Assembly (NCBI RefSeq): GCF_001564455.1 | Contig: NZ_CP011391.1 | Span: 1,380,001 to 1,412,000 of the forward strand | Direction: 5' to 3' | DNA from: Faecalibaculum rodentium | GTDB taxonomy: Bacteria > Bacillota_I > Bacilli_A > Erysipelotrichales > Erysipelotrichaceae | DNA: 32,000 nucleotides | In this document: positions 14,059 through 15,435 of the stretch, in pieces | Position numbering within the stretch: the first letter of the stretch is position 1 | Layout: each line of letters starts with the position of its first letter | Translations under genes and position numbers: made by a program | Notes under the pieces: generated by a model | Database searches by the model: none | Told to the model about the DNA's origin: nothing | The model's input: the letters and a program-made list of their open reading frames with translations, nothing else

Positions 14059-14309
14059 GCCTGTGTCCTCCCCTGCACTGCTTTCCGTGCATCCAGTGCC
14101 CGTTTGAGATTGCACACGTTCTGCCCCAGGTATTCCTCCTGGAATCTGGCCAGTTCTCCGCTGGGGATGACTGTTGCCTTCCCCGTCTTGATGCCCTGTA
14201 GGATGCCTGTTTCCAGCCATGTGTTCACAGACTCCCTTCCGCAGTGCATGAGCCCCGCTACATCCTCAATGGTGTAGGTCATGAGCGGGTTGAAATATGT
14301 AGCTTCCAT
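14055..14309 (-). CDS. excisionase/MerR-like HTH_17 DNA-binding protein
   Basis: 84 aa. YTIEDVAGLMHCGRESVNTWLETGILQGIKTGKATVIPSGELARFQEE fits the Xis-type HTH pattern. Start lies inside the 31-bp repeat. Confidence 0.7.
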   Translation of the reverse strand: MEATYFNPLMTYTIEDVAGLMHCGRESVNTWLETGILQGIKTGKATVIPSGELARFQEEYLGQNVCNLKRALDARKAVQGRTQA

Positions 14310-14333
14310 GAGATTTCCTTTCTGTTATCCTTT
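14303..14333. repeat. 31-bp perfect direct repeat, copy 1
   Basis: CTTCCATGAGATTTCCTTTCTGTTATCCTTT is identical at 14303-14333 and 14863-14893. Its reverse complement gives the RBS and ATGGAAG start of a minus-strand gene. A shorter relative (CCTTTCTGTTAT) lies at ~13389. Confidence 0.9.
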
Positions 14334-14358
14334 CTGTGAAAGAAAGGAAATAGAATCG

Positions 14359-14721
14359 ATGAATGAAGATTTTTCAAACCTGAACCTTTTCTGGCCTGAA
14401 AGAATCCGATTATATGTGCTTTACCGATTTCGAAGAAATGCTGATGTTCTGGGGCCGTATGAAGCCGCCCTTCTTCGGGAAAAGCTTGTTGTAGTCCGCT
14501 ATTCGTTTCATGACACCCTTGCAGATAAGACTCCCTCAGCTGACCGCAAGGCCTATGTCACCACTCGTTATATGCGGTACCTTCGCTGGAAAAAGAATCA
14601 GACGATCTCACGCATTTTTGGTTCGGTTCTTCTACCCTTTGTTGTGGCAGTCCTATCCACCATAGCCACACAACTAATACAGCAGTGGCTAGAATCAGGA
14701 GGGTGCATGCCCAGGCCTTGA
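14359..14721 (+). CDS. plus-strand moron A: 120-aa protein with a C-terminal TM anchor
   Basis: Internal ATG 14359 of track ORF 14281..14721, with AGGAAA 8 nt upstream. Fills an otherwise empty 250-nt gap in the minus-strand operon and is followed ~110 nt later by a plus-strand terminator. Overlaps minus ORF 14558..14869 by 164 nt, so one of the two may be spurious. Confidence 0.45.
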   Translation: MNEDFSNLNLFWPERIRLYVLYRFRRNADVLGPYEAALLREKLVVVRYSFHDTLADKTPSADRKAYVTTRYMRYLRWKKNQTISRIFGSVLLPFVVAVLSTIATQLIQQWLESGGCMPRP

Positions 14722-14869
14722 CTCTTGTATTCGCCTTGATGCGCATCATGTAATTCGCACATTCAAGATCTGGCTTTTCCGGGCAGCCAGGCGATCTGTC
14801 CTTGCATCGATACAGACAGTAATTTTCCAATCCCTCGGTCGCCGCTGAGGGGTTTTCTTTTTCTTCCAT
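14558..14869 (-). CDS. Cys-rich single-TM protein, 103 aa (N-terminus MEEKENPSAATEG)
   Basis: Start and RBS lie inside 31-bp repeat copy 2. NPSAATEG is shared with 13428..13709, and all four nucleotide differences are synonymous third-position changes in this frame. The 3' part conflicts with plus ORF 14359..14721. Confidence 0.5.
   Translation of the reverse strand: MEEKENPSAATEGLENYCLYRCKDRSPGCPEKPDLECANYMMRIKANTRVKAWACTLLILATAVLVVWLWWIGLPQQRVEEPNQKCVRSSDSFSSEGTAYNEW
14832..14866 (+). terminator. plus-strand intrinsic terminator embedded in the 5' codons of a minus-strand gene
   Basis: Stem CCCTCGG (14832-14838) / CTGAGGG (14845-14851). It has one G-U pair in the plus-strand RNA but an A-C mismatch in the minus-strand RNA. 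Followed by TTTTCTTTTTCTTC and then CAT (start 14869). Confidence 0.5.
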
Positions 14870-14893
14870 GAGATTTCCTTTCTGTTATCCTTT
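14863..14893. repeat. 31-bp perfect direct repeat, copy 2
   Basis: Identical to 14303-14333 (offset 560). Confidence 0.9.
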
Positions 14894-14911
14894 GTTGACG
14901 GAGGTTTGATT

Positions 14912-15325
14912 ATGAAATCCAATATTCCATCCACTAGAAGGCTGTTGAAATTCGTCTTCAAGAACCCGAACTGTTCAGCCGAGGACGTTGCCCACAAGTT
15001 CCAAATTGAACATATGGATGCCGTCTGTATTCTTAACGGAGTATCAGACTGCATAGTTTCGAAGTTCGTAACTCAGGATGGCTTTATCGTTGATCGTAGT
15101 GACATTCAGCTAACTGCTGTTGGTCGTCAGTATCTCGAGGACAAATCATGGGATCGCCTGCTGGTTACCGCTTCATTCCTGGTTTCTCTTGCCTCATTGA
15201 TTGTTGCCGTCATTGCAGCTTGCATTTCCTACCAGACGAACACTGCAAGCCCCGACAACAGCAGCGCAACTACCGAGAATACCAATGCCAGAAATGACAT
15301 AAATTTTGACTCACCGTCTTCGTAA
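14912..15325 (+). CDS. plus-strand moron B: 137-aa winged-helix-like N-domain with a C-terminal TM segment
   Basis: GGAGG 7 nt upstream of ATG 14912. Sequence MKSNIPSTRRLLKFVFKNPNCSAEDVAHKFQIEH... then LLVTASFLVSLASLIVAVIAACISY. Fills a 360-nt gap in the minus operon. Its last 97 nt overlap convergent gene 15229..15435. Confidence 0.55.
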   Translation: MKSNIPSTRRLLKFVFKNPNCSAEDVAHKFQIEHMDAVCILNGVSDCIVSKFVTQDGFIVDRSDIQLTAVGRQYLEDKSWDRLLVTASFLVSLASLIVAVIAACISYQTNTASPDNSSATTENTNARNDINFDSPSS

Positions 15326-15435
15326 ACGACGATTGGCTGCCGTCTCTCTCGTTCCCTCATCTCTCTCTGGAGCTTCAGCTTCTCCAGAGTTATGTATCTG
15401 CCGTCAATCACCTTGACGGCTTCTTTTTCTGTCAT
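15229..15435 (-). CDS. small tail-anchored membrane protein, 68 aa
   Basis: Internal ATG 15435 gives an ATGA overlap with the upstream stop. Sequence MTEKEAVKVIDGRYITLEKLKLQREMRERERRQPIVVYEDGESKFMSFLALVFSVVALLLSGLAVFVW. Confidence 0.6.
   Translation of the reverse strand: MTEKEAVKVIDGRYITLEKLKLQREMRERERRQPIVVYEDGESKFMSFLALVFSVVALLLSGLAVFVW

Follow-up and report, generated by a model that had tools for sequence, protein, structure and literature searches.

The window analysed here, 32,000 nucleotides (nt) of the Faecalibaculum rodentium genome (positions 1,380,001 to 1,412,000 of contig NZ_CP011391.1), holds a prophage that spans about 3 kb to 20.4 kb, and within the first 2.5 kb of its leftward early operon lie two rightward open reading frames (ORFs), ORF1 and ORF2, which are the subject of this report. 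The operon opens with a Cro-like gene divergent from cI and includes small genes, a dUTPase, an AAA_24 (Sak4-type) protein and helicases, and both ORFs are co-oriented with cI and int. Each fills a hole in the minus-strand genes (14310-14557, 248 nt; 14870-15228, 359 nt) and converges on a leftward gene with which its 3' end overlaps, by 164 nt (14558-14721) for ORF1 and a gene of 103 amino acids (aa), and by 97 nt (15229-15325) for ORF2 and a gene of 68 aa. Ahead of each ORF, between it and a leftward start codon, sits one of two exact copies of a 31-bp sequence, CTTCCATGAGATTTCCTTTCTGTTATCCTTT, 560 bp apart (positions of all features are in Table 1). A preliminary description had reported this exact repeat, the divergent junctions (a ribosome-binding site and ATGGAAG on the minus strand; plus ORFs of 120 and 137 aa, with GGAGG for ORF2), minus-strand holes of 250-360 nt and 3' overlaps of 97-164 nt, and all of these were found again.

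Both rightward frames behave as genes. Contigs of relatives were aligned as DNA, changes were counted by the Nei-Gojobori method and p values are binomial. Against the relative L006, ORF1 in its plus frame has 16 synonymous and 9 non-synonymous changes outside the overlap (ratio of non-synonymous to synonymous change, pN/pS, 0.17; p=2e-5) and 14.5 and 8.5 inside it (0.20; p=4e-4), and ORF2 outside its overlap has 27-41 synonymous and 20-34 non-synonymous changes against three lineages (0.17-0.25; p 1e-6 to 3e-11). Four of the five control frames gave 0.8-3.3 (0.8-2.6 for ORF2, about 1 for ORF1); the low value of the fifth (0.18-0.35) is what an antisense frame with aligned wobble positions should give, and stop codons interrupt that frame. 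In all relatives both frames are intact and the Shine-Dalgarno sequence (SD) and ATG are conserved, that of ORF2 being the only long open frame in every relative, and so the interruption in close relatives that the preliminary description had thought would tell against its reading is not found. The synonymous excess in their own frames, together with the open frames in relatives, indicates that ORF1 and ORF2 are genuine protein-coding genes under purifying selection. Chance open frames in non-coding spacers would sit well with codon-usage scores just above zero (0.01-0.06, too weak to decide coding), an AT skew that shows no clear flip at the plus ORFs and the lack of known domains, but this idea is effectively refuted by a strong synonymous excess in exactly these two frames, by the frames being intact with SD and ATG conserved, and by remote homologues of like architecture in other genera and in an isolated phage.

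In the leftward partner of ORF1 the minus frame inside the overlap (14561-14719) has a pN/pS of 1.3-2.0 against L006 and L012 (4.5 synonymous and 18.5 non-synonymous changes and p=0.82 for L006), while the N-terminal ~50 aa (14720-14860) give 0.21-0.24 (19 and 15, p=1e-5, for L006). Given the former ratio, the C-terminal half of the 103-aa protein (14558-14719), apparent transmembrane (TM) helix included, is neutral read-on, a shadow of the antisense of the DNA that codes for the TM helix of ORF1. The preliminary description had both leftward partners end in a TM helix, which holds for the 68-aa protein; in the 103-aa protein the hydrophobic segment is not at the extreme C-terminus and is not selected. 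The selected part of the latter (14722-14869) has a C-x4-C-x6-C-x8-C pattern (YCLYRCKDRSPGCPEKPDLEC), and could be a small zinc-binding domain. The frame of the 68-aa gene is open in all relatives (68-72 aa), and its N-terminal part, at pN/pS 0.5-0.9, has no clear selection signal. Its overlap with ORF2 has diverged by 2-10% as against 15-30% in both flanks, which fits a double coding constraint, and as the two frames share wobble positions there pN/pS cannot separate them.

ORF1 is predicted to be all-helical, and the basic stretch RYLRWKKNQTISR before its TM helix argues for an N-in topology. Its close homologues (94% and 89% identity, protein search) are joined by a more distant one, DO134P1_00036 of the isolated Dorea phage DO134P1 (OP172779.1; L148 4004-4330), which aligns over its full length at 28% identity (tblastn, pairwise E=1e-10). 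That gene, annotated as hypothetical, is the lone reversed gene in the leftward early run of its phage, three genes from a Cro-like gene and co-oriented with an XRE repressor and an ImmA-type peptidase. ORF2 has close homologues at 87%, 85% and 77% identity (protein search), and word-based protein searches with either ORF returned close homologues only. HMMER against 1.84 billion representatives recovered remote relatives of ORF2 of 113-114 aa, with an N-domain bearing a KNPNCS motif followed by a C-terminal TM helix and no tail, and a search of 300 genomes of the family found further members in other genera, one of which, in another Erysipelotrichaceae genus (L138), lies reversed between leftward genes beside an XRE repressor. 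Since the remote members end right after the TM helix, the 29-aa polar tail of ORF2 is a lineage-specific extension over the TM-coding DNA of the 68-aa gene. On these gene maps the reversed orientation is conserved in distant phages.

The winged-helix-like N-domain that had been proposed for ORF2 is hinted at by three concordant indications, all sub-threshold: an IclR winged helix-turn-helix (HTH) match in a PDB profile search (E=0.028), a Pfam HTH_24 match (E=0.021, in 2/7 family members), and a Foldseek search whose best matches are, with few exceptions, Lrp/AsnC/MarR proteins, at E>=0.36 and from a model with a pLDDT (predicted local distance difference test score) of 53. The genome search with the ORF2 family also draws in MarR genes, at E~1e-4 to 1e-6. 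A further ORF2 homologue, P0006 (191 aa, from an NCBI contig), has an internal duplication of 52 aa and a frameshift just past the TM helix, after which it reads the alternative frame as at window 15148..15297, the polar tail alone being affected; decay of this copy or a fault in the assembly would account for it.

The junctions use both strands. Read on the minus strand, each repeat copy has AGAAAGGA and, past a spacer, the ATGGAAG with which a leftward gene opens (14055..14309 for copy 1, 14558..14869 for copy 2), and the 31-bp repeat is the common core of a divergent junction of 42-49 nt. The pattern common to all junctions runs from the leftward start (CAT on the plus strand) through a spacer of 6-9 nt, (T)CCTTTCTGTTA(T/C/G)(C/G)C and a further spacer to GGAGG, TTTGATT and the rightward ATG, and its core is kept at every cassette boundary in the relatives. 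A TGnTAnnnT motif like an extended −10 element lies inside the repeat, is kept in 12/13 junctions and overlaps the leftward ribosome-binding region; as TGTTATCCT it may be a weak extended −10 for the rightward gene. No third copy of the 31-bp repeat was found in the 2,542,486-bp genome with up to five substitutions allowed, and so its double occurrence here is not due to chance. Wider searches with junction sequence added little: a 17-mer of the core gave 104 scattered matches in genome contigs against ~70 by chance, which is uninformative, and one relevant match in viral contigs, to a contig already known; a 29-base junction pattern run over metagenome and viral contigs re-found the L003-type contig alone; and window 13400-16900 gave no match in a DNA search of a phage collection. 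The sole DNA match among 40 relatives, L002, was set aside as a chance similarity of ribosome-binding site and MEEKEK-like codons at the start of an acetyltransferase gene.

Comparison of the window with 20 related contigs indicates what moves. L021 matches 13000-14327 and then 14863-15436 through one junction copy, and is without exactly the 560-bp unit of ORF1 and the 103-aa gene. In L003, L012-L016 and L146 the match ends at 14918, 6 nt past the ORF2 ATG, and homology returns at 16207; from the ATG and SD of ORF2 another ORF of 154 aa, with an N-terminal TM helix, is read there, converging on another leftward ORF of 52 aa. L017 strings three units together (ORF1, 154-aa and ORF2, in that order); in L022 and L023 the gene ahead of the ORF2 unit is an unrelated leftward one, and homology begins at 14874, inside the repeat; and L006-L011 keep ORF1 with the 103-aa gene replaced by an N-terminally extended version of 170 aa, homology stopping at 14858. 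To the left of both units the window has an empty ('ghost') junction, exactly at which L012 and L013 carry a 1-kb insert with a convergent pair (a 141-aa plus ORF and a 132-aa leftward ORF) and a 54-aa leftward gene. To the right it has a third rightward ORF, of 67 aa, with an unrelated 68-aa ORF at the equivalent position in L018. In L021 the equivalent reversed slot (1980-2483, plus strand) is occupied by a 167-aa TIR protein (PADLOC PDLC00733, E=1e-18; phrog_3634, E=3.6e-45) that is followed by a terminator of its own (2505-2529). Among the relatives the array is seen empty and with one, two or three units. Further cargo of the equivalent slots includes three single-pass membrane proteins, and counted over the six known cargoes besides the TIR protein, four are single-pass. 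The cargo proteins bear no relation to one another, and profile-profile comparison detected no kinship between ORF1, ORF2 and the 141/142-aa cargo.

The preliminary description had asked for alternative cargo between the junctions to be looked for, and the 154-aa TM ORF, the TIR protein and others answer to this; its idea of cassette-style acquisition agrees with the exact gain, loss and exchange seen at the junction. Going by the alignments, then, units have been gained, lost and swapped at the junction. Because a unit runs from junction to junction it always includes one rightward and one leftward gene, and so what moves is, on the same alignments, the convergent pair and not the plus ORF alone. 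Homologous exchange at junction elements of 30-90 bp seems the simplest mechanism: as the junctions are alike, recombination between them could add, delete and swap whole units among related prophages. Members of the AAA_24/Sak4 family promote recombination on short or diverged homology, and the AAA_24 protein of this prophage may be the agent of junction exchange.

The repeat might instead be kept mainly as a regulatory or translation-initiation element, be it the binding site of a phage regulator or a shared leftward initiation region, the breakpoints being incidental. That its core is kept at all junctions whatever the cargo, that it holds a tandem TCCTTTCTG motif as well as the leftward SD, and that the two copies are identical while the flanking coding DNA differs would all be accounted for. 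Such a role is compatible with one in recombination, however, and repeat copy 2 is the homology breakpoint in L003, L012, L021 and L022, so that the breakpoints of four independent relatives lie in or at the repeat; L021 moreover is the exact single-copy product expected from recombination between repeats. As the main reason for keeping the repeat, regulation is distinctly improbable.

Each unit also seems to carry its own stop signal. Over 13000-17200 a consensus scan picked out 13 terminator-like sites where shuffled sequence gave 4.0 +/- 2.3, and 12 of the 13 belong to the plus strand. Strong sites span 14829-14854 and 15400-15420, each with a T-run after it, and 16205-16222, and another spans 13668-13689, behind the empty junction; these terminators fold at -12.5 to -17.4 kcal/mol (z -2.7 to -4.7). 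The U-tract of every such terminator is on the plus strand only, and because of G-U pairs several hairpins are far stronger in plus-sense than in minus-sense RNA (-14.9 as against -7.8 kcal/mol for the ORF1 terminator, -12.8 as against -5.9 and -12.6 as against -7.5 for others). From the plus-only U-tracts and the stronger plus hairpins it follows that these sites are predicted to stop rightward transcription and to let the leftward early transcript pass. They lie in the first ~13 codons of the next leftward gene, where the T-run reads EKE/KEK and the hairpin NPSAATEG, and the relatives show the same layout. An N-terminal peptide (K/E)(K/E)NPSAATE(G/R) is found in otherwise unrelated leftward proteins of 93, 103, 128 and 132 aa, and internally in the 170-aa form; the presence of the terminator within their 5' codons explains this common peptide.

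Table 1. Features of the early-operon units and of the surrounding prophage. Positions are those of the window unless a related contig is named; + is rightward, - leftward.
Feature	Position	Strand	Remarks
ORF1, 120 aa	14359..14721	+	Helical N-domain and single C-terminal TM helix (aa 81-108); ATG at 14359
Leftward early gene, 103 aa	14558..14869	-	Cys-rich N-terminal ~50 aa selected; C-terminal half unselected; hydrophobic aa 48-76
ORF2, 137 aa	14912..15325	+	Winged-helix-like N-domain, TM helix aa 80-109, 29-aa polar tail; GGAGG SD 7 nt before ATG
Leftward gene, 68 aa	15229..15435	-	Hydrophobic aa 41-68 (C-terminal TM helix); converges on ORF2, 97-nt overlap
Junction repeat copy 1	14303..14333	both used	Minus: SD and ATGGAAG start of 84-aa HTH gene; plus: TGTTATCCT, possible extended −10 upstream of ORF1
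Junction repeat copy 2	14863..14893	both used	Minus: SD and start of 103-aa gene; plus: possible −10 upstream of ORF2
Empty ('ghost') junction	13386..13433	both	Core TTACCTTTCTGTTATGCTC; plus-strand GGAGGGTTTGGTTATG with GGAGG and an ATG opening just 11 codons (MSRNWESDPSV)
ORF1-unit terminator (predicted)	14829..14864	+	Hairpin AATCCCTCGGTCGCCGCTGAGGGGTT then TTCTTTTTCT; 108 nt past ORF1 stop; within codons 2-13 (EEKENPSAATEG) of 103-aa gene
ORF2-unit terminator (predicted)	15400..15430	+	GCCGTCAATCACCTTGACGGC then TTCTTTTTCT; 75 nt past ORF2 stop; folding energy -12.5 kcal/mol, z -4.65; in first codons of 68-aa gene
Ghost-slot terminator (predicted)	13668..13699	+	Encodes NPSAATEG in 93-aa leftward gene; 84% identical to the terminator at 14832-14863
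Third rightward ORF, 67 aa	15901..16104	+	Acidic, no TM helix; TATAAT box ~30 nt upstream; own terminator
Third-unit terminator (predicted)	16205-16232	+	~100 nt past the 15901..16104 ORF
Hairpin sites encoding NPSAATE peptide	13668-13699, 14829-14864; L012 3803-3824, 4310-4331, 5473-5494	+ in window	
HTH_17 (excisionase/MerR-like) gene, 84 aa	14055..14309	-	Left border of cassette 1; Pfam PF12728 E=6e-06, 26.9 bits, slightly under curated cutoff 27
Cro-like gene	16499..16744	-	Divergent from cI; first gene of leftward early operon
CI-type repressor (HTH_3 and Peptidase_S24)	16877..17533	+	Same direction as the cassettes
Post-cI variable slot	17544-18830; L006 7633-8565; L007 7114-7590; L012 7169-8152; L017 5588-7317; L018 5952-6562		
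HicB antitoxin	18441..18830	+	Within prophage
Tyrosine integrase, phage Arm-binding type	19250..20383	+	Sole integrase found
AAA_24 (Sak4-type) protein	8227-9309	-	Early operon; candidate recombinase for cassette shuffling at short junction homologies

The slot directly after cI is also variable among the relatives, which have a SNIPE nuclease, an Ltp-type lipoprotein or HicAB there; in the window it holds a 183-aa protein without family assignment and then HicB.

Overall these observations probably describe two self-contained rightward units of the moron kind, with a third just to their right, set against the leftward early-lytic operon and swapped by recombination at the junctions. Each junction would supply an SD and ATG for a leftward gene on the minus strand and an SD and ATG for a rightward gene on the plus strand. 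The rightward products would be small proteins with a cytoplasmic N-domain and one membrane anchor, of a helical family without known function for ORF1 and winged-helix-like for ORF2, and each unit would stop at a one-way intrinsic terminator within the first ~13 codons of the next leftward gene. Going by orientation, the units would be transcribed in the lysogen alongside cI and int, and after induction the early transcript, running antisense through the rightward genes, would be expected to shut them off. The products may act at the membrane in superinfection exclusion or defence, a function put forward tentatively here, at slightly less than even odds. The moron reading had already been given in the preliminary description, and the extra DNA relative to the relatives, the predicted rightward terminators of the units' own and the TIR cargo in a relative's slot sustain it.

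Several points weigh against this picture and need to be set beside it. Neither ORF1 nor ORF2 matches a Pfam family, nor any PADLOC-DB v2 model at E<=0.1, and the structure models are poor (AlphaFold pLDDT 45 for ORF1 and 53 for ORF2). As had been stated before, neither protein could be placed in a known family, with the qualification that ORF1 has one library match, a weak one (E=3.5e-4), to phrog_12206, whose function is unknown. The base composition of the ORFs (GC 0.471 for ORF1 and 0.457 for ORF2, that is 0.46-0.47) is about that of the small-gene block (0.467), though under that of the adjoining HTH gene (0.553), the early operon as a whole being at 0.518. The terminators are computational predictions. 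A promoter scan found no match to the sigma-70 consensus in either junction, and the conserved TGnTAnnnT could equally be kept as the upstream part of the leftward ribosome-binding site. Finally, that a neighbour has a TIR protein in its slot is no direct evidence on ORF1 or ORF2.

The rightward genes could also serve the phage's own life cycle, with ORF2 as a membrane-tethered winged-helix regulator, or with antisense transcription from the units damping a leaky early operon and so stabilising lysogeny. The winged-helix-like features of ORF2, the position of both families near the cI/cro switch in distant phages and the RNAs antisense to early genes that the units are predicted to yield would all suit such a function. 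Unlike core regulators, however, the units are dispensable and interchangeable among close relatives, their cargoes are mutually unrelated and include a TIR effector, and the purifying selection is on the proteins and not merely on transcription, which makes this account rather improbable.

Another idea is that the convergent pairs are two-gene modules of defence and antidote, wired as a non-contiguous operon. The lysogen would produce the rightward membrane protein, and the leftward partner (103 or 68 aa) would come from the early transcript upon induction, which would also silence the rightward mRNA by antisense collision and so spare the phage its own weapon. Plus ORF and partner do always co-travel (ORF1 with the 103/170-aa gene, ORF2 with the 68-72-aa gene, the 154-aa ORF with the 52-aa ORF, the 141/142-aa ORF with a leftward ORF of 128/132 aa, and so on), and with the plus terminator in the first codons of the partner the plus transcript is predicted to cover the whole of it in antisense. 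The overlap of ORF2 and the 68-aa gene is 2-7x more conserved than its flanks, and precedents exist in Tab/anti-Tab (PMC10884400) and in the non-contiguous operon of TaiEcA/AtiEcA (PMC11364771). Co-travel, however, follows from geometry alone, both start codons lying in the recombining junctions. Moreover the overlapping half of the 103-aa partner is unselected, the N-terminal part of the 68-aa partner is without clear selection, and the overlap varies from 0 to 164 nt between pairs. We consider such modules unlikely.

A bolder form of the same idea takes the whole ~90-nt junction (terminator hairpin, U-tract, leftward ATG and SD, core, rightward SD and ATG) as a portable two-way adaptor for any convergent gene pair, the pairs being modules of lysogen weapon and lytic antidote whose expression is flipped by antisense at induction. 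The junction would then give the leftward protein its N-terminal peptide M-x-EK-x-NPSAATEG and at the same time stop rightward transcription. This is speculative and something of a long shot; were it true, gut Firmicutes phages would have an array of defence cassettes that is like an integron but independent of a recombinase.

The significance of the locus lies in two new families of small prophage proteins with a membrane anchor, validated by their evolution, both of which keep their reversed early-operon position across phages of different Firmicutes classes. They are concrete candidates for new functions in exclusion or defence, in a commensal of the mouse gut whose phages have hardly been studied. 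The way in which accessory genes move can also be seen with unusual clarity here, with two divergent start signals in a short junction and a one-way terminator in the block to its left jointly serving as recombination handles. A caution for annotation arises as well: gene callers dropped the plus or the minus gene by turns, and one apparent TM helix is a neutral shadow.

Two known kinds of element can be ruled out for these units. Type I toxin-antitoxin systems form convergent, 3'-overlapping pairs in Firmicutes prophages (txpA/ratA, bsrG/SR4), with a hydrophobic toxin of <60 aa and a non-coding antisense RNA; here the ORFs are of 120 and 137 aa with soluble domains of ~80 aa, and the strand opposite them codes for protein, as a stretch of a long operon. 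Integron cassettes, which have an attC recombination site each and depend on an IntI integrase and attI, are excluded in that the only integrase is of the phage tyrosine type, the junctions are ribosome-binding and terminator elements, and the breakpoints fit homologous exchange.

Variable hotspots for anti-phage genes are a feature of P2/P4-like elements, and the cI-to-N region of lambdoid phages carries morons such as rexAB and sieB. The present locus shares with them fixed slots with interchangeable cargo, some of it recognisably defensive (the TIR protein in L021). It differs in that the borders are junction elements of ~30-90 bp in tandem within one operon rather than flanking genes, and in that the cargo consists of very small single-pass membrane proteins.

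In Gram-positive hosts superinfection exclusion by membrane proteins is known from the Sie2009 type of lactococcal P335 phages and from the Ltp lipoprotein of Streptococcus thermophilus phage TP-J34 (PMC3952083). These too are small membrane-associated prophage proteins co-oriented with the repressor, and relatives of the present prophage have an Ltp-family gene directly after cI. In contrast to ORF1 and ORF2, they lie in the lysogeny module between int and cI and not in the early operon, and there is no sequence similarity. ORF1 and ORF2 moreover appear to be N-in, with a C-terminal anchor and cytoplasmic domains, and so an intracellular target suits them better than a block at the surface.

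Accessory genes in non-contiguous operons are represented by TaiEcA of phage phi80, encoded with its antidote AtiEcA (He et al. 2024, PMC11364771), and defence with an antidote by Tab/anti-Tab of JBD26 (Patel et al. 2024, PMC10884400). The gene layout described here, a reversed gene inside an operon, fits such an operon. As with TaiEcA, the accessory gene is transcribed against the lytic operon that it interrupts, the neighbouring operon gene co-travels with it, and lytic transcription is expected to run antisense through it. The known pairs, however, are located in late or packaging operons, target tail assembly and have partners shown to interact, whereas here there is no homology to them, the partners are putative and the setting is the early operon of a Gram-positive phage.

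Closest of all seem the morons in the sense of Juhala and Hendrix, exemplified by HK97 gp15, a small inner-membrane exclusion protein (Cumby, Davidson & Maxwell 2012, PMC3594210). As in HK97, there is an extra gene between otherwise adjacent genes with a terminator of its own and horizontal spread among related phages: the units are extra DNA between genes that are adjacent in a related phage (L021), with other cargo in L003, L012 and L146 and an extra unit in L017, and a factor-independent terminator for each is found by computational prediction. Also as for HK97 gene 15, the products are small inner-membrane proteins, and orientation and insulation would allow expression from a repressed prophage. 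The units differ from gene 15 in lying in the early operon and not the tail operon, and from morons in general in that they form a series in which every member has a convergent leftward partner, that the 5' coding sequence of the opposing genes doubles as their terminators, that a promoter is not evident, and that GC does not clearly set them apart. The proteins are not similar to gp15 in sequence; as an analogy without homology, gp15 may be taken as the nearest functional model. The placement of the units among phage accessory genes is thus clear if fairly ordinary, morons being a kind already known, and its interest lies in the two uncharacterised membrane-protein families and in the neat architecture of the junction through which the units are exchanged.

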